The notes under the pieces are model-generated. The model was not told the origin of the DNA and did no database searches. It saw only the letters and a program-made list of their open reading frames with translations. DNA of 61,231 nucleotides from an uncultured Bacilli bacterium (GTDB lineage: Bacteria; Bacillota_I; Bacilli_A; RF39; UBA660), in assembly GCA_934096715.1 (NCBI GenBank), contig CAKOMQ010000005.1:1-61231 (forward strand), given 5' to 3'. Both the position numbers and the translations under genes were made by a program. Positions within the stretch are counted from its first letter, which is position 1; each line of letters starts with the position of its first letter. Below, piece after piece: positions 3,478 to 61,231 of the stretch.

Positions 3478-3632
3478 TGTAGCTGTATTGTTGAGCGCAT
3501 GGACCAGTAATGGTTGACGAGGATAGTAGTTGTCGAATTATCAGCGGATGCTACTACGGATAAGGTTTATTCGTTAAATATACTACAAAATGTAAAATCT
3601 AAGATTACAACAAAAAGTATATTAAGGAAAGG
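3478..3632 (+). promoter_or_regulatory. glmS ribozyme/riboswitch
   Basis: Lies directly upstream of glmS. Cleavage-site context TTG/AGCGC at 3494. Conserved core GACGAGG and CAGCGGATGC. Confidence 0.85.
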
Positions 3633-3641
3633 AAAATTAAA

Positions 3642-5402
3642 ATGTGTGGAATAGTTGGATATGTAGGTAAAGAAAAAGCGTTACCTATTATTTTAAACGG
3701 TTTAAAATTTTTGGAATACAGGGGATATGATAGTGCTGGAGTAGCTTACTATAAAAATGGAATGGTTGAAGTAAAGAAGAAAGTAGGAAAGATTGCAAAC
3801 TTAGATAAGCTAATCAATTATGATGAAGATACTTATTTAGGAATAGGACATACAAGATGGGCAACGCATGGTAAACCAAGTGTTACAAATGCTCATCCCC
3901 ATGTTAGTGGAAAATTTACAGTAGTACATAACGGTATAATTGAAAACTATCTGGAATTAAAAGACAAATTACTTAGAAATGGGGTATCATTTAAAAGTGA
4001 AACAGATACTGAAATAATTGCAGCACTTCTTGATTACAATTATAATGGTAATATTTTAGAAACTATTAAGAAAACATTAGATGAAGTTAGGGGAAGTTAT
4101 GCTTTAGGTATTATTTGTAGTGATGATGATAGTACTTTATATACTGCAAGACTTGGTAGTCCATTAATAATTGCTCATAACGATAATGGAAACTTTATTG
4201 CCAGTGATGTACCAGCAATTTTAAAATATACTAACAGATATTATTTATTAGATGATGGTGAAATAGCTACATTAACTAAAGATTCGATAACTATCTATGA
4301 TAAAGATTTAAATAAGATTGAAAAAGAAGAAAAAATATTTGAAGGAAGTCCTGAATCAGCAATGCTTAATGGATATGATCACTATATGATTAAAGAAATT
4401 AATGAACAACCAAAAGTATTTGTTGATACTCTAAATTATTATGTTGAAAACAACAATTTCAAAAATACTATGCCAGATTTTAATAAGTATAATAAAATCC
4501 ATATAGTAGCATGTGGTAGTAGTTACCATGTTGGACTAGTTGGTAAAAGAGTAATTGAAGAATATGCAAATATTCCAGTTGAAGTATATGTAGCAAGTGA
4601 ATATCGTTATGATAAAATTTTTTATAATAAAGATGAACTTGTTATATTAATTAGTCAAAGTGGAGAGACTGCAGATACATTAGCGGCTCTTCGTAAAGCT
4701 AAAAACGAAGGAGTAGATACTCTTGCTATCGTTAACGTAGTTGGTTCTAGTATTTCTCGTGAAGCTGACAAAACTTTATATATAAAAGCAGGACCAGAAA
4801 TATCAGTAGCAACAACTAAAGCTTATTCAGGACAATTATTATTATTAATATTAATAGCTATAAAGTTATCTAACAATTTAGAATTATTAAAGGAATTAGA
4901 TGGTACACTTGATGCAATTAAAGAAATTTTAAATATCGATTTAAGAGAAGCAGCAGAATATATTGCAAAATATGAAAATGCTTTCTTTATTGGTAGACTT
5001 ACTGACTATGCATTATGTATGGAAGGTGCTTTAAAACTTAAAGAAATTTCTTATATAAATTGTAGTGCTTTTGCTGCAGGAGAATTAAAACATGGTACAA
5101 TATCTTTAATTAATGAAGGTATACCAGTTATAAGTGTATGTACAGAAGAGTTAATAGCAGAAAAAACCATTAGTAACATTAAAGAAGTTAAAGCTAGAGA
5201 TGCTTATGTGTTATTTATAACTTGTGATGATATAGAAGGAGACTTCTATGACAAAAAAATAGTGATACCTAAAGTATCACCATTAACTCAAAGTTTAGTA
5301 GCTATTATACCACTTCAAATTTTAAGTTATGAAATTGCTAAAATACGTGGTTGTGAAATAGATAAACCAAGAAATTTAGCTAAATCAGTTACAGTAGAGT
5401 AA
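3642..5402 (+). CDS. glmS: Glutamine--fructose-6-phosphate aminotransferase
   Basis: N-terminal MCGIVGY (Ntn Cys), two SIS domains, C-terminal KPRNLAKSVTVE. Confidence 0.97.
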   Translation: MCGIVGYVGKEKALPIILNGLKFLEYRGYDSAGVAYYKNGMVEVKKKVGKIANLDKLINYDEDTYLGIGHTRWATHGKPSVTNAHPHVSGKFTVVHNGIIENYLELKDKLLRNGVSFKSETDTEIIAALLDYNYNGNILETIKKTLDEVRGSYALGIICSDDDSTLYTARLGSPLIIAHNDNGNFIASDVPAILKYTNRYYLLDDGEIATLTKDSITIYDKDLNKIEKEEKIFEGSPESAMLNGYDHYMIKEINEQPKVFVDTLNYYVENNNFKNTMPDFNKYNKIHIVACGSSYHVGLVGKRVIEEYANIPVEVYVASEYRYDKIFYNKDELVILISQSGETADTLAALRKAKNEGVDTLAIVNVVGSSISREADKTLYIKAGPEISVATTKAYSGQLLLLILIAIKLSNNLELLKELDGTLDAIKEILNIDLREAAEYIAKYENAFFIGRLTDYALCMEGALKLKEISYINCSAFAAGELKHGTISLINEGIPVISVCTEELIAEKTISNIKEVKARDAYVLFITCDDIEGDFYDKKIVIPKVSPLTQSLVAIIPLQILSYEIAKIRGCEIDKPRNLAKSVTVE

Positions 5403-27377: not shown

Positions 27378-29108
27378 ATGAATAAAAAGTATTTTGCATT
27401 TATAATGTTTTTATTTTTTATGTTATCTCCAACAATCGTTAGTGCTTTACCAAAGGGTGTAATAACAGGGACAGGAGTGTCATTAAGGACTGGTCCTGGA
27501 ACTAATTATGGAAAAATTAGTTTTACACTAAAAAAAGGAAATGCTTATGATATGGTAGATACTAATATTGTTAAAGATGAAGGTGGATGTAGTACAGGTT
27601 GGTATAGAATTTATTATAAAAATACAAGTGTTGGTTACGTATGTGGTAAATATTTAACTGTTGATGCAACTGGAACACTAGGAGATATATATGGAAGACC
27701 TTGGACTAGTCCAAAGAAATCAATTAATGGTGGCGCTAAGGTTATTGCTGAAGGCTACATTCAAGCGGGACAGTTTACTGCTTACTTAAAGAAATTCAAT
27801 GTTAATCCAGCAACAGGTAAGGTATATTGGCACCAATATATGGCCAACTTACAAGCTCCTTCTAGTGAAGCTAGAAGTACTTATAATAGTTATGTTAATG
27901 GTGGATTAATTAATTTACAAAGAGAGTTTACTATTCCAATCTTTACAGGAATGCCTGCAAATACTACGCTTCCAGGAAAAAATGCTGAATTATGTTATCA
28001 AGGTGTTATTGATCAAGCTTTTGAAAATAGTTTGAATGAGCAAGGATTTGATGAGACATATAAATGTAAACTTAGAAAACTTCACATTATTCATCCTAAC
28101 TGGATATTTAAATCACTTAAAACTAACTTAGACTTTAATAGATCAGTAATTGCAGAAAAAGGAGTATCATCTATTCAAGGTTCTACAAGTTTATTTGAAT
28201 CAATGGATTCAAATACTTGTAAAAGTTATAATCAAAATTATAATTTAAAAAATGGTTATTGTAATACTGAAGGTACATGGTATATAGCCAATAATCAAAC
28301 AGTTGGTTATTATTTAGACCCACGTAATTTTCTAGATGAAGTAAATATCATGATGTTTGAAAACTTAGGCTATAGTGCTAACTTTACTACTGGAGTTGTT
28401 CAAACTATATTAAATGGAACTTTTATGAGTGGAGCATCTATTCTAGATAATCAAACATATGCAGAAATATTTGTTGAAGCTGGTAAAAATAACAGTGTAA
28501 GTGCTGTATATTTAGCAAGCCTTGCTAGACAAGAAAGTGGAGTTAATGGCTCAATTGCCACAACAGGAGCAGAATTTAATTATGAAGGAATAACTTATAA
28601 AGGACTATATAACTTCTTTAATATTGGAGCTTATTCTACTGCAAGTAGTCCTATTAAAGCTGGTCTTGTATATGCTTCTGGTGGTTATGATAGTGTAAAG
28701 GTAAATCCTACAACACCAAGTGATTCTAATGAAACCACTATTATAAATAAAATAGGCGGTTCTAAATTTAATAATATAATTACTAATATTGGTGTAGGAA
28801 CTACGCAAGATACAATAAGGAACAGATTAAGTGGTCATACCGTATCATTTAGCGGTAGTGGAGTATTAAAAACAGGAATGACTATTACTGTTGACAATAA
28901 ATATACTTACACATTTGCTATTAAAGGTGATGTTGATGGCGATGGTAATATTATGGCTACAGATTATGTAAAAATTAAAAACTATATAATGGAAAGAAGT
29001 GGCAGCGAACTAAATGAAGCTCAAAGAGTGGCTGCTGACATGGATGGTAATGGTTATATAGTTGCAACAGATTATGTTAGAGTAAAAAATATAATAATGG
29101 GGAGATAG
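27378..29108 (+). CDS. Secreted SH3b plus N-acetylglucosaminidase (GH73-like) protein with a C-terminal dockerin
   Basis: Signal peptide. SH3b-like GVSLRTGPGTNY...WYRIYY. LARQESG...LYNFFNIGAY is glucosaminidase-like. Dockerin repeats GDVDGDGNIMATDYVKIKNYI and ADMDGNGYIVATDYVRVKNII. Confidence 0.75.
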   Translation: MNKKYFAFIMFLFFMLSPTIVSALPKGVITGTGVSLRTGPGTNYGKISFTLKKGNAYDMVDTNIVKDEGGCSTGWYRIYYKNTSVGYVCGKYLTVDATGTLGDIYGRPWTSPKKSINGGAKVIAEGYIQAGQFTAYLKKFNVNPATGKVYWHQYMANLQAPSSEARSTYNSYVNGGLINLQREFTIPIFTGMPANTTLPGKNAELCYQGVIDQAFENSLNEQGFDETYKCKLRKLHIIHPNWIFKSLKTNLDFNRSVIAEKGVSSIQGSTSLFESMDSNTCKSYNQNYNLKNGYCNTEGTWYIANNQTVGYYLDPRNFLDEVNIMMFENLGYSANFTTGVVQTILNGTFMSGASILDNQTYAEIFVEAGKNNSVSAVYLASLARQESGVNGSIATTGAEFNYEGITYKGLYNFFNIGAYSTASSPIKAGLVYASGGYDSVKVNPTTPSDSNETTIINKIGGSKFNNIITNIGVGTTQDTIRNRLSGHTVSFSGSGVLKTGMTITVDNKYTYTFAIKGDVDGDGNIMATDYVKIKNYIMERSGSELNEAQRVAADMDGNGYIVATDYVRVKNIIMGR

Positions 29109-29111
29109 TGT

Positions 29112-30491
29112 ATGAAAAATAAGATAAAATTAATTTTAACAGTATTTGTATCAATGTTATTTGTAGGTAATGTTGATGCTGCTAGTTTTTCAATAAGTGT
29201 TGGTAGTAGAACTCTTAATCCAGGTGGATCTACTACTTTAAGAATAACTGGTAATGATGTAACAGGGAGATTTAATATTACAACAAGTAATGGTTCTGTT
29301 ATATCACTTGGTGATGGAAGTGTATGGGTAGAAAATAATACTCAAACTATAAAGTTAAGTAGTTTAAATATTGGTTCTGCTACAATTACCGTATCACCCG
29401 TAAGTGGTGCAAGTGATTCTAGTGGTAATCCAGTAACTTTAGGGGCAAAAAGTGTAACAATTAATGTCCAAAAACCAAGAGATAAATCTAAAGATAATAA
29501 TTTAAAAAGTCTAAGCGTAGAAGGGTTTACATTAAACGAAGAATTCAGTAAAGATAAATTAGAATATACTGTAGATGTACCAGAAGGAACAACAAGTATA
29601 AATATAATAGCGCCTTCAAATGATGGATACGCAACAATTACTGGGGCTGGAGTTCAAACTGTTAATCCAGGAGCTAATAATTTTGATATAGTAGTAACAC
29701 CAGAACTTGGAGAAGCTAAGACATATAAATTAGTAGTTAATGTAATTGATCAAAATCCAGTTGAAGTTACTGTAGATAAGTTAAAATATACATTAGTAAA
29801 ATATGAAAATGCATTTACTTGTCCAGATAACTTTGAAGCTATTACAATTGAAATAGGAGAGTTCAAAGTACCTGCTTGTCAAAATGATAAAATTAAATAT
29901 ACTTTAGTAGGTTTAAAGAATGAAGATGGAACAGTTACGCTTGCAAACTATAAAAATAATAAATATACTCTATTTAATGAAATAAAAAATAGTAATCAAA
30001 GTATAGTTCCTTTAAAATTTAAAGGTAGTATAAATAATTATACTAAGAGTTCTGTTAAAATTAATGGACTTGATGTAGAGTGTTATAAATATACAAAATA
30101 TAGTAAAACCTGTATTATATACGCATTAAATGTTGATACTGGTAAAGAAAACTATTATATATATGATACAGAAAATAAGAATTATATAGCGTATGATAAT
30201 GAATATATTGATTATTTAGAGACTAATAATAAGTATATGTTTATTGCATGTATATCTTTTGCGGCTGGTTTATTTATATCATTTATATCTCTAATATGTG
30301 TTAGTAAAAAGAAAAAGAAGAAAAATAATTCTATAAAAGAAAATAAAACTAATATAGAAGAAAAGCCAGTAAAAGAAGAAGTAAAAAAGAAAGAAAAAAT
30401 TGAAAATAAAAAAGAAGAAATAGATACTGAAGAAGTTTATAATATTTTTGAAGAAGAAAAAAAATCTAAAAAGAAGAATAAAGTGAAATAG
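29112..30491 (+). CDS. C-terminally membrane-anchored protein: Ig-like or cohesin-like N-domain plus cadherin-like domain, with a K/E-rich tail
   Basis: Signal peptide. NNLKSLSVEGFTLNEEFSKDKLEYTVDV...YKLVVNV is a cadherin-like pattern. TM segment FIACISFAAGLFISFISLICV plus KKKKKK. Same architecture as the 9295-10224 ORF. Confidence 0.55.
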   Translation: MKNKIKLILTVFVSMLFVGNVDAASFSISVGSRTLNPGGSTTLRITGNDVTGRFNITTSNGSVISLGDGSVWVENNTQTIKLSSLNIGSATITVSPVSGASDSSGNPVTLGAKSVTINVQKPRDKSKDNNLKSLSVEGFTLNEEFSKDKLEYTVDVPEGTTSINIIAPSNDGYATITGAGVQTVNPGANNFDIVVTPELGEAKTYKLVVNVIDQNPVEVTVDKLKYTLVKYENAFTCPDNFEAITIEIGEFKVPACQNDKIKYTLVGLKNEDGTVTLANYKNNKYTLFNEIKNSNQSIVPLKFKGSINNYTKSSVKINGLDVECYKYTKYSKTCIIYALNVDTGKENYYIYDTENKNYIAYDNEYIDYLETNNKYMFIACISFAAGLFISFISLICVSKKKKKKNNSIKENKTNIEEKPVKEEVKKKEKIENKKEEIDTEEVYNIFEEEKKSKKKNKVK

Positions 30492-33855: not shown

Positions 33856-33884
33856 TTGAAAATAATACTCGTTTGTAGTATTAT
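33856..33884 (+). promoter_or_regulatory. Sigma-A-type promoter of surface-protein gene B
   Basis: TTGAAA, 17-nt spacer, TATTAT. Duplicated at 36834-36862. Confidence 0.6.
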
Positions 33885-33922
33885 TTTTTTAGTAGAAAAA
33901 ATAGAAAGTGAGACCCCGAAAA

Positions 33923-36728
33923 ATGAAGAAAAATGCTAATTTATTAGCAACCTTCCAGAAGTTAAAAAGCCTACTGGGGGGGGGGCGAGAAACAACAAAA
34001 AAGAACTTTAATTATAGCATTAATATTAGTAGAATTTCTATTAATTATATGTGCTTACATTTCATATAATAATAAAAATTTAGACAAATATATATTTAAT
34101 TCAAAAGATTTAAAAAGTAGTGGTTTATTTGCCATTATGTTAGAAGATTCAGATGGTAATTACAAGCAAAGTACTAAAGATGAATTTCCAGGTTATGAAT
34201 ACTTTTATAATCAAACAAAATCAGGATGCATGAATTCTAGTGGTAAGACAATACCGGATTCTCTTTTATATGATCAAGAAAATAAAAAAGCTACAGTAAA
34301 ATTGAACTCATCTGGTATGTGTTATCTTTATTTTAATAAATATAAAACAGATAACTTTGCATCCAAACTAATTGATAGTGGCAATTTATGGGATAGTGGA
34401 CTTGAAGGCGATGGCTACAGATTTACAGGAACAGGAATAACATGTTCTTATGATGATGGTAAATATGTTATCGCAGCTGATAATCAACAAACAACACCAA
34501 GTTGTCCTAAAAGATATAATTATACAAGGACAACTATATCAGATGGTACAACTACAGATTATACTTATCAGACAAGTTGTCCAACAGATACGACAACCTA
34601 TACTTATTCATGCACTGAATTAAACGGAGAAACTAGTAGCAAAAATATTCCATCTAATTTTGTTTGTTTTGGAACAACCGATGTGTCTGAATGTACAGCA
34701 AACCAAGATAAATACATGTATAGAATAATTGGAGTATTTACTGATTCAAGTGAAAAGCAACACGTAAAACTTATAAAATATACTAGTATTGGTTCTTATC
34801 AATGGCATTCAGATGGTTCTGAAACAGTGACATGGAAAAATACAGATTTATATAGCGGATTAAATGGAAGTTATTTCTTAACAAATACAGCCTACGATTA
34901 TATACAAAATACAACATGGCTAAATAAAATCGAAAATTGGACATGGAATGCCTTGTTAACCAATGTTGGTGAAAATGAAGGGGATAATGATAATCCGGAT
35001 TTAGGCGGTAGTACTATTAAAGGTGTGTATTTCAGTGAAATGAATATAAATTCTAGCGAAAAATTATGTGGGAATTACAATGGAGAAAAAATTACATGCA
35101 ACAATGGTTTATTGACAACACCTACAGGAAAAATAGGCTTAATGTATGTAAGTGATATGTTGTTGTCCTATGGACCAGAGAATACAGAAACATCTAAACA
35201 TTCTCAATTAAACACAACATGGCTTAATGCAAATAGTAACATAGGCAAAATAAGTGACTGGTCAATATCTCAAGATGGTTTTTATCCAGATGACGATAGT
35301 TATGTCTACTACTTTGATTATGATGGTTCTCCTGATTATGGTTATTACACAGATAATTATGATACTAGGCCAGTATTTTATCTAACAAGTGATGTTTCTT
35401 CTAGTGAAGGCTCTGGTACAATAGATAATCCATATATTCTAGGCACGTCTTCTAGTAGTAGTTCTTTAAAAATAGATGTAAAAAATGCAAAGAATGTTAT
35501 GACTGCAACAATAAAAAAAGGAACAGGTAATTTAACTAAGTATTGCATAAATAATAAAGCAACAATAAATGACTGTGAATGGAAGAGTATTACAACTACA
35601 ACAATAACTTACACAATGCCTGAATATAAAAAATATTATATACATGTAATAGATAATCAAGGTTTTATTGCACATGCATACCTAAACTATGAAGCTAAGA
35701 TACTTAGTCAAAAACTTATAGATACAAAAGAAATGTGGCAAAGTGGACTTGAAGATGATGGATATCGTTATACTGGAACAGGAATAATTTGTTCATATGA
35801 TAATGGATTTTATTATAAGTTAGCAGATAATCAACTTTCTAATCCGAGTTGTCCTACACTCTATAATTATACTACTACCCAAGGTGGTTACTCTTATCAA
35901 GATTCATGTCCTGATGGAACCACATGTACATCAGTCAATGGTGAAGTTGCTGAAGATGCATCAATACCAAACAATTATATTTGCTTTGGAACAGTAAGTC
36001 AAAATGAATGTTTAAATAATAAGGATAAATATATGTATCGAATAATTGGAGTGTTTAAAGATGCGAGTGGTTCTAACCATGTAAAGTTAATAAAAAATGA
36101 AACGTTAGTAGGAGTACAATGGACTAGTGACACTAGTTATGTAAGCTTTGGCGAAAGTAATATTTATAATGAAATAAATGGAGATGCGTTTATGAATAAT
36201 ACTTATTATGATTATTTGCAAAACACAAAATGGTTAAATAAAATAGAGAATTGGACATGGAGTGCTCTTGATACTAATAATCAATATTACTACTATTTTC
36301 AAATAAGCGACATATATCTACATGAGCTAAATAAATCTTCAAATACAAATTCAACAGGAACATGGACAACCCCAGTAGGTAAAATAGGCTTAATGTATGT
36401 AAGTGATTATGCACTTTCAATTGGAGATAATGCTATAAATAGTGCACTAACACCAAGTAAAGAGTTGTTAAAAAATAGTTGGATTCATTGTAATTTATTA
36501 AAAGATAATTGTATGGAATATACTATTACAAATTATGGGGCGAGAATTGTTAATAATAGAAACTTAGGAATTTATGTATTTACAATATCTTATAATGGCG
36601 AAGTTCCTGTAAATGGTGGAACATCATCATCATTTATTTATCGACCGGTCTTCTATTTAACAAGTGATGTTAAATCAATTCCAGAAGGCGATGGTACTAT
36701 CACAAATCCATATATGATTGTGGAATAA
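33923..36728 (+). CDS. Phase-variable surface protein B. Two tandem RPVFYLT-type domains. Frame-shifted (OFF) at the G10 tract in this sequence.
   Basis: ATG 33923 reads MKKNANLLATFQKLKSLLGGG and then stops at 34067-34069. The body frame is open from 33966 and encodes a basic segment plus a TM anchor, with no start codon before 34137. G11 or G8 would give one continuous ORF. Confidence 0.75.
33976..33985 (+). repeat. G10 homopolymer tract (contingency tract) in the 5' coding region of gene B
   Basis: Counted directly: ctactGGGGGGGGGGcgag. Confidence 0.95.
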
Positions 36729-36833
36729 TTAAATACGGTATAAAGAATATCTACTAATGCTTTCTATCTATCTAATATAGTAGGTATCTTTATATATAGA
36801 TAAGCTTTCCTTAATGGAGAGCTTTTTTGGTAC

Positions 36834-36862
36834 TTGAAAATAATTGGAATTTGTTGTATCAT
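36834..36862 (+). promoter_or_regulatory. Sigma-A-type promoter of surface-protein gene C
   Basis: TTGAAA, 17-nt spacer, TATCAT. Confidence 0.6.
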
Positions 36863-36899: not shown

Positions 36900-39096
36900 A
36901 TGAAGAAAAATGCTAATTTATTAGCAACCTTCCAGTTTATAAAAAGCCTACTGGGGGGGGGGCGAGAAACAACAAAAGAAAACTTTAGTTATAGTATTAA
37001 TATTAATAGAATTGCTATTAATAATATGTGCTTATATATCATATAACAATAAAACTTTAGACAAATATATTTTTGGAAGTAGTGATTTAAAGAATACTAA
37101 TCTTTTTGCAATTATGATCGAAGATGCAAATGGAGAATATAAAGAAAGTTCATTAACTTCTTTTCCAGGATATGACTATTTTTATAATCAAGAAAAATCT
37201 AGTTGTATGGATATGTCTGGTAAACCAATAACTGACTCACTTTTATATAATCAAGACACTAAAACAGCAACAATAACAATTGGAGACACAAGTAGTTGTT
37301 ACTTATATTTTGATACTTGGAAAAGTACTCCGAATTTTGCATCTAAATTAATTGAGTCTAATGTGATGTGGCAAAGCGGACTTGATGGAGATGGTTATCG
37401 TTTTACTGGTACTGGATCTTATAGTAGTAGTACTACACCTTCAAACTTTATATGCTTTGGGACATTTGATAAATCTACATGTACAAGTAATCCTGATAAA
37501 TACATGTATCGTATAATTGGAGTATTTGATGGATATATTAAATTAATAAAATTAACAAGTTTAACTAGTAATCTTCAGTACGCAGGAGCTGGTTTTTCTC
37601 AAATTTCGGACTCTGGTCGTGTTTTTGCAAATTCTGTCTTAAAGAAAGAATTAAATGGGACATCATTTCTAACTAATACGACTTATGATTATCTGCAAAA
37701 TACAACTTGGTCAAATAAAATTGCTGTAAATACAAAAAAATCAGTTAATACTACAACATATACAAACAGTGGTCCAAATTATTATAATAGTGTTAGTCCA
37801 AGTCAAATATATCTTCATGAGTATAATAAATCAGGCAATTCTAATACTAATGGAGAATGGTCAACTTACAATGATAAAATTACAGTAATGGATGCAAGTG
37901 ACTATGTATTATCTTTAGGAAGCACAGCGAAATCAATGACTACTGGTACTTATACTAATAGAAATACTTTAAAAACAAGTTGGCTATTTCTGGGTAACAA
38001 TAAATATGGAAATACAAGTGGAAATTACACAACAGAACAAACAACAGCATCTTATGGAATACAATCAACTATAAGTTACATTTATTCTTGGACAATTAAT
38101 CCTAGTGGTTATTTATATCAAACATCTATAAGTAATTCATATGCAGTAAGACCAGTTTTCTATCTTACAAAAGATACAACTAGTAACAATGGTACAGGAA
38201 CATTAAGTGATCCATATTTAATAGATGAAGTTCCTAAAGGAATAAATATTAATTTATCAAATACTGATAATATTCTATCTATTAAAATAACTGATGATTA
38301 TAGTACTCAGCTTAAATATTGTGTTAATAATAGTTCTTCAATAAGTGGATGTGAGTGGAAAAATGTTAACTCAAGTAATATTTCATATAATATGACAGAT
38401 GATGGTACCTATTATGTTCATGTTATAGATAGCTTAGGTTATATAAATCATAATAGCTTTAGTTATGTTGCCAGTGATTCTTATAATTTTGTTTTAGCGA
38501 TACCAGAGAAATGTTCAGATATAAATGGAAATTATTTTAATTTGCAACGTATGCCATCTGCAGAAAAATTAGGTACAAGGGCTGATGCCATAACAGAAGA
38601 AGATATTACTGTTTATGGAGTAAAAACAGAAAATTTAATGAGTTCCGATATTATTAATACAACAGAAAATGGAATAATATCATTTCCAAGTAATTTTGAA
38701 ACACAAAATTCATTTCCTTCATTATTTGATGCTTTGTACACCTGGTACTACAAGCTTACGGCAGGATATTCCCAATTTGAGTATGATTTCTATACACCAT
38801 ATACTATAAATAATGCTAGATATGATGGAATATATCAAAATAAGATGTTTGGAAATAGCTCAGTAGCACTGGATTATGATGAAATAACTTATTGGGTCGG
38901 ATACAAATGGATATTTTATGAAGTACCGCCAGGAAGTAATTTTGATGTCTTGAATCCAGATAGTCAGTATAGAATAAATTTTGTAACTAAAAAAGATACA
39001 ACTTTACCAATATACCAACTAATAAACAATGTGAAACTTCGTGGTAATTATACTTACTATGGTATTTATGAATATTATGAAGTATATTCAGAATAA
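36900..39096 (+). CDS. Phase-variable surface protein C. One RPVFYLT-type domain, an Ig-like module and a unique C-terminal domain. Frame-shifted (OFF) at G10.
   Basis: ATG 36900 reads MKKNANLLATFQFIKSLLGGG and then stops at 37044-37046. The body frame from GGC 36961 encodes GEKQQKKTLVIVLILIELLLIICAYISYNNKTL.... The only in-frame alternative start (TTG 37012) lies inside the TM helix. Confidence 0.75.
36953..36962 (+). repeat. G10 homopolymer tract in the 5' coding region of gene C
   Basis: Counted directly: ctactGGGGGGGGGGcgag. Confidence 0.95.
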
Positions 39097-47893: not shown

Positions 47894-48265
47894 ATGGATT
47901 ATTTATATTATTTAATTTATTTTATAGGGGTATTTCTTATTATATTTCTATGTGACTATTTAATAATGAAGAAACCTTATTTAAACAAGAAAAAGAAGAA
48001 AAAAGATAATGAAGTATTTGAACTCACTTATATAGTTAGTAAATTTAAATTAGATAAGAGTAAACTAAATATTAAAAAGTGTTTAATAGAGTTTTCTTTA
48101 ATGAATGCCTTTATTATTAGCTTTACAGTAGTAGTACTCTATATACTAGATTTATTTATAATATGGCAATTCTTAATAGGATTTATCCTGTTAGTGGGTC
48201 TTATTTATTCAATATATGAAATTTATGGAAATATTTTAGTTAAGAAAGGATATATTAAAAAATGA
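47894..48265 (+). CDS. Small membrane protein, 123 aa, co-transcribed with leuS
   Basis: SD AAAGGAG. Hydrophobic segments flank a K-rich loop. The stop overlaps the leuS start (ATGA). Confidence 0.6.
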   Translation: MDYLYYLIYFIGVFLIIFLCDYLIMKKPYLNKKKKKKDNEVFELTYIVSKFKLDKSKLNIKKCLIEFSLMNAFIISFTVVVLYILDLFIIWQFLIGFILLVGLIYSIYEIYGNILVKKGYIKK

Positions 48266-51072
48266 ATTATAATGAGATAGAAAAAAAATGGCAAAGTATT
48301 TGGGATAAAGAAGAAAGTTTTAAAGCAGTTAATGGAAGTAGTAAAGAACCATACTATATTTTAGTAGAATTTCCTTATCCAAGTGGAGCAGGACTTCATG
48401 TAGGTCATGTACGTAGTTATACTGCTCAAGATGCGATAGCGAGAATGAAAAGAATGCAAGGCTACAACGTATTATTCCCAATGGGATGGGATGCTTTTGG
48501 AGCACCTGCTGAAGGATATGCAATAAAAAATCATATTCATCCTAAAGATGCTGTAAAAGAAAATATCCATACTTTTAAAGGACAAATGCAAAATTTAGGA
48601 TTTTCATTTGATTGGTCAAGAGAATTTTCAACAACTGATCCAGAATATTATAAATGGACACAATGGCAATTTTTAAAGTTCTTTGAACATGGTATGGCTT
48701 ATAAAGATAAAATACCTGTTAACTGGTGTCCTAATTGTAAAACAGTTCTTTCTAATGAAGATAGTGCTGGTGGTGTATGTGAAAGATGTGGTACTAGTGT
48801 AGTTCAAAAAGAAAAAAGTCAATGGATGCTAAGAATGAGTAATTATGCTGAAGACTTACTTAATGGACTTGAAGATACTCATTTTGCTAGTAAAGTAAAA
48901 CTAGGTCAAATTAACTGGATAGGTAAAAGTACTGGTGCAGAAGTGAATTTTAAAGTAGCTGATACTGATTATGAATTTACTGTTTATACTACTAGACCTG
49001 ATACATTATATGGAGTTACTTATTGTGTATTATCTCCAGAACATGAACTCGTGGATAAGATAACTAAACCTGAAAACTACGAAGAAGTATTTAAGTATAA
49101 AGAAGAATGTTCTCATAAGAATGAAATGGAAAGAACAGAACTTAATAAAGAAAAAACCGGTGTATTTACAGGAAGCTTTGCTATTAATCCAGTTAATAAT
49201 GAATTAATACCAATCTATATAAGTGATTATGTTTTAGTAAGTTATGGAACTGGTGCTATTATGGCTGTTCCAGCTCATGATGAAAGAGACTATGAATTTG
49301 CTAAAAAGTTTAATATTCCAATTAGGCAAGTTCTTGAAGAGATAACTGGCAAGAAAAATGATTCTGAAAGTAAGAAAAACTCAATAGTAGCGATTGTTTA
49401 TGATGAATTAGAAAATAAATATTTAACAATTAATTGGGGTAAACTTGGTGGTAGATTATTTGTTGGTGGAACTATTAAAGAAAATGAAACTCCTGTTGAA
49501 TGTGCTATTAGAGAAATAGCAGAGGAAACTGGCTATACTGATATTGAATTAGTAAGAGAATCATTTAAAATAAACCATCATTATTATGCTTATAATAAAG
49601 ATAAGTATTTTGATATAGAAGCAACACCTATATTATTTAAATTAAATAGTTACAAAAAAATTGAACAAAATCTTGATGAAGATGAGATATTTAAGATTGA
49701 ATGGGTGAGTAAAGATATTATTGAAAAAGAAATAATAGATGAATTACATAAAAAATCTTATTTATATACATTAAATGATACTGCTTTAGTAGGAGATGGT
49801 ATTCATATTAATTCTGGTATTTTAGATGGCCTTAATAAAGAAGATGGAATTAATAAGATGATCGAATACTTAACTACAAATAATATAGGTAAAAAGAAAA
49901 CTAATTATAAGATGCGTGATTGGATATTCTCAAGACAAAGATTCTGGGGAGAACCAATACCTATTGTAATATGTGATCATTGTGGTTATGTACCTCTTCC
50001 TGAAAGTGAATTACCATTAGTACTTCCTGATGTTGCTAATTATGAACCAACTGATAATGGAGAGAGTCCACTTGCTAATATAGAGTCTTGGGTTAATACT
50101 ACTTGTCCAAAGTGTGGTCGTCCTGCTAAAAGAGAAACAGATACAATGCCTAACTGGGCTGGATCTAGCTGGTATTTCTTAAGATTTATGGATGCTCATA
50201 ATGATAAAGAATTTGCTAGTATGGATGCTATGAAATATTGGCAAAAAGTTAACTGGTATAATGGTGGTATGGAACATACAGCAAGACACTTACTATATGC
50301 TAGATTTTGGGTACAATTTCTATATAATATAGGTCTTGTTCCTAATAAAGAAATGATTGATACAAGAGTTAGTCACGGTATGGTACTTGGTAGTGATAAT
50401 CAAAAAATGAGTAAAAGTAAAGGTAATGTAATTAATCCAGATGATATAGTTAGTGAGTTTGGAGCAGATACTCTAAGAGTATATGAAATGTTTATGGGTG
50501 ATTATGAACAAGATGCTCCATGGAGTACTGAATCCTTACGTGGATGTAAAAGATTTATTGACAGAGTAGTTAGACTTAAAGATAAAGTAGTTGAAGGAAC
50601 ATCTTATTCTTCTAACTTAGAAGTAATCATTAATAAATCTATTAAAAAGATTAGTTATGACTTACTAAATATGGGTTACAATACAGTAGTATCTCAATTA
50701 ATGATTATGTTAAATACTTATGAAGAACAAGACACTATTACTTCATCTGATTATAATGTATTCTTAAAACTATTAAATCCTATCGCTCCACATATAACTG
50801 AAGAGTTAAATGAACAAATAGGATATGAAAAAATATGTGATAGTACTTGGCCAGAGTATGATGAATCTAAAACTGTAGATAATAATCTTACTATTGGAGT
50901 ACAAGTAAATGGTAAGTTAAGAGCAGAAATTAATATTACTCTAAACGAAGATAAAGCTAGTATTTTAGCTAAAGCTAAAGAAGAAGAAAACATAAAAAAA
51001 TATCTTGAAGGACACACTATTATAAAAGAAATAGTAGTACCTAACAAGATAGTTAACATAGTTGTTAAATAG
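48262..51072 (+). CDS. leuS: Leucine--tRNA ligase with an inserted Nudix-fold domain
   Basis: HVGHVRSY (HIGH), KMSKSKGN, and the CP1 editing motif TTRPDTLYG. The extra segment at ~49339-49788 contains GTIKENETPVECAIREIAEETGY, which matches the Nudix box GX5EX7REUXEEXGU. Confidence 0.95.
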   Translation: MNYNEIEKKWQSIWDKEESFKAVNGSSKEPYYILVEFPYPSGAGLHVGHVRSYTAQDAIARMKRMQGYNVLFPMGWDAFGAPAEGYAIKNHIHPKDAVKENIHTFKGQMQNLGFSFDWSREFSTTDPEYYKWTQWQFLKFFEHGMAYKDKIPVNWCPNCKTVLSNEDSAGGVCERCGTSVVQKEKSQWMLRMSNYAEDLLNGLEDTHFASKVKLGQINWIGKSTGAEVNFKVADTDYEFTVYTTRPDTLYGVTYCVLSPEHELVDKITKPENYEEVFKYKEECSHKNEMERTELNKEKTGVFTGSFAINPVNNELIPIYISDYVLVSYGTGAIMAVPAHDERDYEFAKKFNIPIRQVLEEITGKKNDSESKKNSIVAIVYDELENKYLTINWGKLGGRLFVGGTIKENETPVECAIREIAEETGYTDIELVRESFKINHHYYAYNKDKYFDIEATPILFKLNSYKKIEQNLDEDEIFKIEWVSKDIIEKEIIDELHKKSYLYTLNDTALVGDGIHINSGILDGLNKEDGINKMIEYLTTNNIGKKKTNYKMRDWIFSRQRFWGEPIPIVICDHCGYVPLPESELPLVLPDVANYEPTDNGESPLANIESWVNTTCPKCGRPAKRETDTMPNWAGSSWYFLRFMDAHNDKEFASMDAMKYWQKVNWYNGGMEHTARHLLYARFWVQFLYNIGLVPNKEMIDTRVSHGMVLGSDNQKMSKSKGNVINPDDIVSEFGADTLRVYEMFMGDYEQDAPWSTESLRGCKRFIDRVVRLKDKVVEGTSYSSNLEVIINKSIKKISYDLLNMGYNTVVSQLMIMLNTYEEQDTITSSDYNVFLKLLNPIAPHITEELNEQIGYEKICDSTWPEYDESKTVDNNLTIGVQVNGKLRAEINITLNEDKASILAKAKEEENIKKYLEGHTIIKEIVVPNKIVNIVVK

Positions 51073-51197: not shown

Positions 51198-51304
51198 AAA
51201 TTAAGTGTACACAAAAATTTGTAAAATATCAACCATTTTATTGCAATTCATAATCAAATTTGGTATGATAAAATAGATAAATTAAATAAAAATATTTAAA
51301 AATT

Positions 51305-51451
51305 ATGAATTTTATGACCCGAAATTTTATACCGGTAAGTTATAAAATTCCCCTTCAGACGCTAAAAAGCCTACTGGGGGGGGGGGTTGAGAAAATGAGT
51401 CTGATGTGTGAATATAGGGAAGTAAAAATTTCTCTTTTTTATTTTTTATAA
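51305..51451 (+). CDS. 48-codon upstream ORF containing the G11 tract (MNFMTRNFIPVSYKIPLQTLKSLLGGGVEKMSLMCEYREVKISLFYFL)
   Basis: Not in the ORF track (under 60 aa). Shares ...LKSLLGGG-(G/V)EK with the B and C leaders. Ends 15 nt before ATG 51466. Confidence 0.4.
   Translation: MNFMTRNFIPVSYKIPLQTLKSLLGGGVEKMSLMCEYREVKISLFYFL
51376..51386 (+). repeat. G11 homopolymer tract in the leader of gene D
   Basis: Counted directly: ctactGGGGGGGGGGGttgag. Confidence 0.95.
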
Positions 51452-51465
51452 AAGGAAGTGAGAAA

Positions 51466-52998
51466 ATGAAAAAAATGGATAAGAAACAAAGAATATCTTT
51501 TATCATTGGGATATTTGCATTATTGATTTTTGTAATAGGAGCAACATATGCATACTTTAGTATTGGAACTAATAATACTACTACAGATTCAAGTGTTGTA
51601 GGTACAACAAACAAGTATGGTACAGCAAGTTTAACAACTAATACAAGCAAACTATATTTAAAATTTACGAGTGATGAAATGAGTGAAGACTATCAAGGTA
51701 CAACATATTACGCAAATTCTGATAGTGCTGGAACACCCCTTACAACTAATCCAAACTATGTGTTAGCAACCGCAAGTCTAGCAGATGGAGATTTACCACT
51801 TGATTGCGAGTATAATTATAAGGTAACTGCTACAGTAACAAAAGAAATTAATGATGGTAGTGACTCTGATGTAAAAATAACCATTGGAAGTACAACAAAA
51901 ACATTAAAAGAATTAACTGCTGCAGGTACTGATGGAATAGTAATAAATGGTAAACTAAAAAACTTAGTAACAGGAACAAATCAAACAATAAGTTTATCCA
52001 GTACAGTAACAAATACACCATCAAATCAAAATGGACTATCAGGTAATTCATATACAGTAACTATTTCTCCATATATAAGTGGTAATACAAAGTCATTTTC
52101 ATGTAAGTTGCATGAAAAAACACTTGCCGAAAAATTAATAGCAAGTGGAAACTTATGGGAAAGTGGACTAGAAGGCGATGGATATCGTTATATAGGAAGT
52201 GGTGCAGTAGGAACTAGTACTAATCCAAATAACTTTATATGCTTTGGTACAACAGATAAATCTGCTTGTACAGCAAATCAAGATAAATACATGTATAGAG
52301 TAATAGGAGTATTCTCAGATGCAAATGGAGATAATCATGTTAAGCTAATCAAATATAAACAACTAGTATCAGCAAAATGGAATACAAAAGATACAAATGT
52401 AAATTGGGAAGATAGTACATTATATGCAAGTCTAAATGGCACAGAATTCTTAACAAATACAACATATGATTATTTACAAGATACAACATGGAGTAATAAA
52501 ATAGAAAACTGGACATGGAGTGCCATAAATACAAAAACGTCTAATGGAGGTAATGGATCAAATTATTACAGCGTATTAACACCAAGTCAAATATATTTAC
52601 ATGAAATGAACAGAAGTACAAAAACAAGTACAGTAGGTGAATGGACAACACCAGCAGGAAAAATAGGATTAATGTATGCAAGTGATTATACATTATCATT
52701 GGGATCAAGTGCTTTAGCAATAACAGGAAGTACTAGTGCAAATCAAGACAAATTAAAAACAGGCTGGATGCATCAAAGTAATAATGATATTTCTAAATCA
52801 ACTACAGAATGGACGCTTTCTCGTCGTGGGTCTAATGCTGGTTACTTCGAAGCGTGGAGTGTCGCTAGTAGCGGCTTTGTCAGCGGCATTTTTGTGTACA
52901 CTGCGTATGGTACTCGACCAGTCTTCTATCTTACATCTAACGAATCGACTTCTAGTGGAGATGGAAGTTTAGAAAATCCATTTATCATTAGTGAATAA
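51466..52998 (+). CDS. Surface protein D of the family (one RPVFYLT-type domain) with a SipW-type-looking signal peptide
   Basis: SD AAAGGAAGTGAG. N-terminal TM segment ending IGATYAYFS. The C-terminal ~290 aa align with the B and C domains (LWESGLEGDGYRY, DKYMYRVIGVF, NKIENWTWSA, GKIGLMYASDY, RPVFYLTS). Confidence 0.85.
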   Translation: MKKMDKKQRISFIIGIFALLIFVIGATYAYFSIGTNNTTTDSSVVGTTNKYGTASLTTNTSKLYLKFTSDEMSEDYQGTTYYANSDSAGTPLTTNPNYVLATASLADGDLPLDCEYNYKVTATVTKEINDGSDSDVKITIGSTTKTLKELTAAGTDGIVINGKLKNLVTGTNQTISLSSTVTNTPSNQNGLSGNSYTVTISPYISGNTKSFSCKLHEKTLAEKLIASGNLWESGLEGDGYRYIGSGAVGTSTNPNNFICFGTTDKSACTANQDKYMYRVIGVFSDANGDNHVKLIKYKQLVSAKWNTKDTNVNWEDSTLYASLNGTEFLTNTTYDYLQDTTWSNKIENWTWSAINTKTSNGGNGSNYYSVLTPSQIYLHEMNRSTKTSTVGEWTTPAGKIGLMYASDYTLSLGSSALAITGSTSANQDKLKTGWMHQSNNDISKSTTEWTLSRRGSNAGYFEAWSVASSGFVSGIFVYTAYGTRPVFYLTSNESTSSGDGSLENPFIISE

Positions 52999-61003: not shown

Positions 61004-61192
61004 ATGAATTTTATGACCCGAAATTTTATACCGATAAGTTATAAAATTCCCCTTCAGAACGCTAAAAAGCCTACTGGGGGGGGGGTTGAGAAAATGAGTC
61101 TGATGTGTAAATATAGGGAAGTAAGTTCTTCTCTTTTTTATTTAGAAAAGAAGGAAGGTAGTCTGAAAACAAAAAACAAATTTATTTTATAG
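61004..61192 (+). CDS. Fourth copy of the G-tract leader ORF. The downstream partner gene is absent, decayed, or lies beyond the window.
   Basis: Homologous to 51305-51451 at the nucleotide level. Reads through G10 in frame (…PTGGGVEKMSLMCKYREV…). Confidence 0.35.
   Translation: MNFMTRNFIPISYKIPLQNAKKPTGGGVEKMSLMCKYREVSSSLFYLEKKEGSLKTKNKFIL
61076..61085 (+). repeat. G10 homopolymer tract, fourth copy
   Basis: Counted directly: ctactGGGGGGGGGGttgag. Confidence 0.95.
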
Positions 61193-61231
61193 AATTAAGT
61201 AAAAAAGGGCAGACTTCCCCTTACCCCAAAG

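Follow-up and report, generated by a model that had tools for sequence, protein, structure and literature searches.

A poly-G tract as a probable slipped-strand on/off switch of a multigene family of anchored proteins in an uncultured human-gut Bacilli bacterium

The 61,231-nt stretch of DNA analyzed here in its whole length (the window; contig CAKOMQ010000005.1 of an uncultured Bacilli bacterium) contains gene B, whose start codon is separated from the body of the gene by a run of ten G. The best explanation, to which we assign a probability of about 0.8, is that this tract is a slipped-strand poly-G on/off switch, one of several that gate a multigene family of anchored proteins. In this scenario, each family member would be gated by a hypermutable poly-G tract within the first 20 codons, and slipped-strand mispairing during replication would add or remove one G. 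With G9 or G12 (G6 in relatives), translation from ATG 33923 would proceed via Gly codons into a basic stretch, an anchor and a 900-aa body (the ON state); with G10 or G11 it would end after 28-48 codons, no in-frame start being present before the anchor (the OFF state). One tract-length class in three would thereby read from the start codon through anchor and body. The window alleles of gene B and of its downstream paralog, gene C, both with G10, would be OFF and a single deletion away from ON. Several paralogs switching independently would yield combinatorial surface variation, as with opa or vlp.

Reading frames and G tracts of genes B and C

Gene B comprises the following elements.

33856-33884, + strand: promoter-like site, TTGAAA-17-TATTAT (consensus scan, 10 of 12 matches; putative function)
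33903-33917, + strand: Shine-Dalgarno-like AGAAAGTGAG, then C-block 1 (CCCC, 33914-33917), from sequence reading
33923-33975, + strand: ATG and the first 17.7 codons (MKKNANLLATFQKLKSLL), from translation
33934-33949, + strand: leader hairpin TGCTAA-TTTA-TTAGCA, from sequence reading
33951-33956, + strand: C-block 2, CCTTCC, from sequence reading
33963-33975, + strand: box TAAAAAGCCTACT, the same at all four G tracts of the window
33976-33985, + strand: G10 tract, of out-of-frame (OFF) length by sequence and frame rebuild
33984-36728, + strand: gene B body in the +1 frame (translation, frame rebuild)
34067-34069, + strand: premature stop TAA, reached from ATG 33923 at G10 (translation)
36802-36824, + strand: terminator-like hairpin and T run after gene B (scan)

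The frame that starts at ATG 33923 begins MKKNANLLATFQKLKSLLGGGRETT, leads into the ten G's as MKKNANLLATFQKLKSLLGGG and, at the G10 length, comprises 48 codons. The tract occupies codons 18-21 of this frame, that is, it is a mononucleotide run inside the 5' coding region. The long frame is open from 33966, just after the TAA at 33963-33965, and its first ATG, GTG or TTG is the ATG at 34137. The N-terminus of the body, GEKQQKRTLIIALILVEFLLIICAYISY, consists of a basic stretch followed by the sole hydrophobic segment of the protein (the anchor, approximately 34008-34058). The body then continues for about 880 residues to position 36728 and contains two repeated modules of about 400 aa each.

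An earlier note on this DNA, made from the letters alone, had described the G10 run, the promoter, the 48-codon frame, the long frame lacking a start codon before 34137, and the basic stretch with the only hydrophobic anchor encoded after the tract; direct reading, the consensus scan and translation recovered each of these elements. The same note had expected that G11 or G8 would restore the frame, but this arithmetic was wrong. In an in-silico rebuild of gene B with tracts of G7-G13, G9 yields a product of 934 aa and G12 one of 935 aa, while G8, G10 or G11 lead to a stop after 28-48 codons. Thus, the ON neighbor of the G10 allele has one G fewer, because G9 fuses ATG 33923 to the body. A change of one unit toggles gene B between a full-length and a truncated product, as in homopolymer contingency loci, and gene C behaves alike. 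It was considered whether the tract of gene B spaces a promoter or serves an internal start as its Shine-Dalgarno sequence; this was rejected, as no start codon follows within the next 150 nt.

Gene C follows directly.

36834-36862, + strand: promoter-like site, TTGAAA-17-TATCAT (scan)
36900-36962, + strand: leader with ATG 36900, hairpin, C-blocks and box as in B, and G10 at 36953-36962 (OFF), from sequence
36961-39096, + strand: gene C body, paralog of B (translation, protein comparison)

The two genes have separate promoter-like sites, with the terminator-like hairpin located between them. Their leaders are about 90% identical at the DNA level; the proteins share 58% identity over the first 190 aa and about 36% beyond. 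In the rebuild, gene C encodes 731 aa with G9 and 732 aa with G12.

The G tracts are strongly over-represented relative to the base composition of the window, which has a G+C content of 26.6% and a G content of 16.1% by base count. About 7e-4 runs of G10 are expected by chance (61231 x 0.161^10), in line with the claim of the earlier note that such a run is very unlikely in DNA this AT-rich. The window contains four G runs longer than five, all of them G10-G11; a homopolymer count revealed no run of G6-G9 and no C run longer than five. The box TAAAAAGCCTACT is identical immediately 5' of all four tracts, with 0.3 matches expected by chance.

Natural variation in tract length

All tract lengths compared between contigs are the assembly consensus of short-read metagenomes, and the contigs matching the window come from metagenomes of the human gut, namely Hadza and 'MERR22' samples. 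The gene B cluster at 90% identity contains 863-aa calls in 15 contigs and 934-aa calls in three. The 934-aa alleles (P0136, P0138 and P0140) have exactly the N-terminus predicted for a G9 fusion, and P0140 departs from protein B of the window in a single residue. The DNA of two of these three contigs (L023 and L024) has G9, with near-identical flanks and no N nearby; the window and contigs L006-L010 and L012 have G10 at gene B. In the gene C cluster, in-frame forms of 731 or 732 aa, P0145 and P0150 among them, are found in 4 contigs versus truncated calls in 24. ON and OFF products coexist in every 90% cluster examined.

Similar variation is observed at other loci. A paralog located downstream of topA, which appears to belong to the same organism as the window, being found in the same samples, has G11, G10, G11 and G10 in four contigs that encode an identical 777-aa product. 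Three contigs with a 100% identical protein of gene D, whose leader carries another tract of the window (see below), have G11, G10 and G9. The latter sample of tract lengths is unbiased, because the call of the D protein is independent of the tract. At least six poly-G loci, namely at least four B-type genes together with D and E, can be counted in what appears to be one organism. Among the relatives, L020 and L021 have G9, in the ON state, and L019 has two copies with G10; in L022, the tracts of three paralogs in tandem are G10, CG10 in frame, and G12.

Of the best 120 homologs, 13 are cassette-bearing proteins that start with MK[KR]NANLLATFQ..KSLLGG(G)(G)E, with two to four Gly residues after KSLL, or with an interrupted version of the tract. 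The interrupted tracts, present in three of the 13 proteins (LLEGGE, LLDGGE), would represent locked-ON alleles. Another 22 of the best 120 are truncated calls beginning at an internal methionine, which is how gene callers treat OFF alleles.

Within the limits of a short-read consensus, tract length thus differs between close relatives that share the same flanks, as is characteristic of contingency loci. The comparison between related strains proposed in the earlier note found a length that is not invariant, for example G10 versus G9 at gene B. Its reading of a slipped-strand switch caught OFF is supported by the natural 934-aa/G9 alleles, by gene C and other paralogs, and by other species.

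Several additional observations concern the paralogs and their annotation. The locus downstream of topA is occupied by a B-like 934-aa gene in L024 (4001-6805) and by the different 777-aa paralog in L043-L046, and at the rseP locus of L012 (4492-5210) the first gene has a C-like leader. The loci seem to have exchanged paralogs, and recombination within the conserved leaders may have been the route. In some paralogs an ATG lies directly 3' of the tract (L043 16713-16730, G10-CATGAAACGA; P0154, P0155), so that the anchored protein minus its first 21 residues could be made at any tract length. At broken or N-gapped tracts, gene callers report truncated or falsely in-frame products.

Leader cassettes and alternative explanations

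The two remaining tracts of the window are located in leaders outside the main open reading frame (ORF).

51241-51269, + strand: promoter-like site of cassette D, TTGCAA-17-TATGAT, with upstream TG (scan)
51305-51451, + strand: cassette D, part of the gene D 5' leader, with GACCCGAAA, hairpin, CCCCTTC, box and G11 at 51376-51386 (sequence)
51466-52998, + strand: gene D, 510 aa, with its own Shine-Dalgarno sequence and ATG and an N-terminal anchor or signal
61004-61120, + strand: cassette E, leader as in D, with G10 at 61076-61085 (sequence)

In cassette D, the promoter-like site at 51241-51269 is followed by the tract at 51376-51386, 80 nt upstream of gene D, and then by the start codon at 51466; the tract would lie in a putative transcribed 5' untranslated region (5'-UTR). 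An upstream ORF of 48 codons, open only at G8 or G11, ends at 51449-51451, leaving 14 nt to the start codon of D. Gene D shares with B only a C-terminal domain of about 300 aa (about 40% identity). For cassette E, no intact start codon was seen 3' of the tract before the end of the window.

Further details of these leaders were noted. At locus E (window 61140-61231; L040 6140-6298), the Shine-Dalgarno-like GAAGGAAGG is followed by CTG at the place where L038 has ATG, and the frame after GAAGGAAGG ends after 9 codons. The contigs found for this locus all end at most about 370 nt downstream, and it may be an orphan or decayed cassette. The upstream ORF of D-type leaders, MNFMTRNFIP..., passes through the tract (window 51305-51465 and 61004-61231; L038 5880-6085). 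In D, which has G11, and in E and L038, which have G10 and an additional A further upstream, it shares its frame with a second small ORF, MSLMCEYREV..., which in L038 continues into the gene itself, the whole leader and gene forming one ORF. One role considered for the upstream ORF was coupling to gene D by unmasking of the D Shine-Dalgarno sequence. It remains a weak idea: the hairpin that would mask this sequence is predicted for D but for neither E nor L038, and a second upstream AUG at 51396 enters the same frame at any tract length.

Several considerations weigh against the slipped-strand switch. Some of the single-base differences in tract length could be errors, because the data are a short-read consensus, Illumina sequencing is poor through G10, and contigs end at the tract (L013, L014, L017, L041, L044, L045) or have N gaps there (L007, L011, L023). 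Such breaks and gaps are compatible with a heterogeneous population as well as with low read quality across G10. The breaks, and the difference between two assemblies from a single biosample, G11 in L016 and G10 in L017, are at most hints of switching within a clone. An apparently in-frame B in L011 was rejected as an artefact, because a stretch of N immediately 5' of the tract displaces the reading frame. G10 predominates, being present in 7 of the 8 B copies read at this locus and in all C copies read. We infer replication slippage as the cause, rapid reversibility within a clone, and the surface location of the products; a benefit such as evasion of immunity or phages is likewise what we infer. 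Finally, the frame-shift model does not account for cassettes D and E, in which tract and box recur in untranslated leaders: by their position these cassettes lie outside the main ORF, where the reading frame should not matter. As a correction to the earlier note, the tract belongs to a conserved cassette that is found outside coding sequence as well.

That the tract length is an error of sequencing or assembly, or that B is a frameshifted pseudogene, would agree with the breaks and N gaps of short-read assemblies and with the out-of-frame allele of the window. It is nevertheless very unlikely, because box and tract are common to four loci in one window, the same G10 was obtained by different assemblers and studies (judged by the contig naming, scaffold_, NODE_ and k141_), the body of gene B is an intact ORF of 2.7 kb for which in-frame alleles exist, and tracts are retained across species at the same codon position. 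Programmed recoding is unlikely. Here G10 would be the working allele, decoded through RNA-polymerase slippage or +1 ribosomal slippage on GGG codons, and the OFF state would be leaky or not off. In its favor, ten identical bases can re-pair perfectly in every register, no other length is as common as G10 at B and C, and the structure predicted for the nascent RNA includes the tract. A programmed site, however, should retain its out-of-frame length, and the homologs show no conserved out-of-frame configuration: G9, G12, interrupted in-frame and G10/G11 tracts occur in the same or sister genes. Recoding is made unlikely by how often these genes occur with alleles that are in frame or that are out of frame in another way. 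The downstream stimulatory element typical of frameshift sites was not identified, and a published source documents bacterial transcriptional slippage mainly for A/T runs (PMC1088944), which also counts against recoding.

A third explanation complements the slipped-strand switch rather than replacing it, and can be proposed only tentatively. The tract may be primarily the 3' strand of a conserved three-way-junction RNA in a portable promoter-leader cassette. Its length would then tune folding near the ribosome-binding site or, as in D and E, downstream termination or translation; alternatively, the fold itself would promote slippage, the frame switching of B and C being just one read-out. The leader fold might determine how often slippage occurs, an effect also proposed for the hmw 5'-UTR of Haemophilus influenzae, whose repeat hairpin provides a precedent (PMC12721329). 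A combined, equally tentative model is conceivable, in which a cassette of promoter, structured leader and poly-G would be attached both to coding starts (B, C and paralogs) and to untranslated leaders (D and E), and would act both on the frame and on RNA folding, translation or termination.

In each of the 17 distinct cassettes, the predicted fold of minimum energy is a three-way junction of one topology. Its predicted stems are P1, formed by GACCC(C) with the 3' G's of the tract (in gene B, C-block 1 CCCC is the predicted partner in RNA folding); P2, a local hairpin between the P1 and P3 strands; and P3, formed by CC(C)UUC(C)AG with CUGGGGGG, i.e. the 5' G's plus CU. P2 is self-complementary in three distinct sequences across lineages (TGCTAA/TTAGCA, TTGCTAAA/TTTAGCAA and AATTTTATA/TATAAAATT). 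In L022a, the change of CCTTCCAG...CTACTG to CCCTTCGATA...TGTTG keeps the P3 pairing at the cost of replacing FQ by LR. C-rich blocks flank every tract, although this DNA contains very few of them: the + strand of the window has just 19 copies of CCCC, and CC[CT][CT]CC is present twice in the window, both times in cassettes B and C. The pyrimidine blocks add up to 10 in either type of cassette (B/C, 4+6; D/E, 3+7). The predicted stability of the B leader increases from -17.3 at G8 to -19.4 at G9 and -22.8 at G10, and then saturates. The location of cassettes D and E upstream of the main ORF rather than inside it, and the existence of D-type genes without any cassette (L039), also favor a role of the leader RNA.

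On the other side, pairing with nearby pyrimidines is expected of any G run, and the folding z-scores of the leaders are modest (-1.5 to -2.1). The cassettes represent about four independent sequence lineages, and MAFFT left their 5' ends and hairpin P2 out of register. The hairpin that masks the D Shine-Dalgarno sequence is absent from the E and L038 predictions, and the single ORF of leader and gene in L038 implies that D-type cassettes could be decayed N-terminal coding extensions. The leader matches no Rfam family: a scan of the window with Rfam 15 identified only glmS and a tRNA, and scans of the cassettes, at the gathering threshold and at permissive E, gave no family, the best hits having E values above 0.4 and falling far short of the threshold. 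Exact-box scans of GTDB genomes and JGI metagenomes returned only chance matches in high-GC DNA; the cassette element was seen only in ENA/NCBI human-gut assemblies.

Protein family, genomic context and known systems

The protein family counts more than 1600 relatives in databases, without a Pfam domain, and searches against Pfam, NCBIfam and PDB sequences yielded no family match for B or D. The AlphaFold (AF2) model of module 1 of B is confident (predicted local distance difference test, pLDDT, 87), and a Foldseek search with it gave no match at E < 0.1. Judged from its sequence, the protein is probably N-terminally anchored and exposed on the cell surface: a basic stretch and a single N-terminal hydrophobic segment are read in B, and no family or fold match indicates a function. 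The neighbors and the loci of relatives encode the sporulation-associated domains Cse60, YunB and YutH, as well as cell-wall genes, in agreement with the spore-forming low-GC Firmicute host assumed by the earlier note. A Ger(x)C match near the locus or the loci of relatives is weak and sub-threshold.

Elsewhere in the window, two large genes without a G tract at 27378-30491, upstream of sepF/divIVA, have a Dockerin_1 hit, accompanied by a weak match to a SagB-like glucosaminidase, as well as a Cadherin-like domain; they are candidates for further surface or cell-wall proteins. A leucyl-tRNA synthetase of 936 aa (48262-51072) has a NUDIX match at residues 399-490 (E = 1e-11), which directly follows the editing-domain match (residues 218-369), and a further class I synthetase match lies C-terminal to NUDIX in the identical protein; related contigs share this architecture. 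The glmS ribozyme (67 bits) at 3483-3632, upstream of a 586-aa ORF at 3642-5402, is ordinary for Firmicutes.

For gut commensals, the discussion of phase variation centers mostly on invertible promoters and on methyltransferase switches. Contingency loci driven by repeats are textbook knowledge in Neisseria, Haemophilus, Campylobacter, Helicobacter and mycoplasmas; to our knowledge, they are not so for spore-forming gut Firmicutes. The earlier note knew of no poly-G phase-variable surface family in such bacteria, and the literature searched likewise describes no comparable poly-G family in gut Firmicutes. The locus reads as a member of the homopolymer contingency-locus class, to which the host and the unannotated protein family are new. 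If the proposed switch is correct, poly-G loci gate a large unannotated family in a human-gut bacterium that is uncultured and very AT-rich. The truncation of these genes by gene callers is systematic, assemblies are interrupted at the tracts, and comparisons of strains will mistake ON/OFF states for pseudogenes. If the idea of a leader RNA is also true, a second, independent simple sequence repeat would act through RNA structure.

Among known systems, opa of Neisseria, vlp of Mycoplasma hyorhinis and vaa of M. hominis encode multigene variable surface proteins, most copies of which are OFF at any given moment. The repeat lies within a conserved 5' expression region, the signal-peptide coding part in opa and vaa and the promoter in vlp. 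The loci described here similarly form a multigene family, and in each copy the repeat is part of a highly conserved 5' expression region. Unlike opa, with its CTCTT pentamers, and vlp and vaa, with poly-A, the repeat here is poly-G, and both the organism and the protein family differ. For the protein family, this difference is indicated by the Pfam and NCBIfam scans, in which B and D matched no family.

Another parallel is provided by Campylobacter jejuni, whose genome is AT-rich, with long G/C homopolymers over-represented and with lengths of G8-G13 that vary between isolates. There, too, the tracts lie in or just upstream of genes for surface structures and gate them by frame shift. In contrast to the poly-G/C contingency genes of C. 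jejuni, its phasome (PMC6321876, PMC8355987), the loci of the window belong to a Gram-positive-type gut bacterium with sporulation genes and to one paralogous family of unknown fold, and the same 13-nt box and a conserved leader, which the C. jejuni loci lack, precede all tracts.

For cassettes D and E and the predicted G:pyrimidine pairing, the closest analogue is hmw1A of H. influenzae. Its 5'-UTR heptamer repeat is transcribed and pairs with a complementary G-rich region, forming an RNA hairpin that involves RNase III, and the RNA fold matters both for expression and for change of repeat length (PMC12721329). The hmw1A repeat has a 7-nt unit present in at least ten copies, a long hairpin and a graded effect, whereas the cassettes described here have a single G10-G11 run and a predicted three-way junction.

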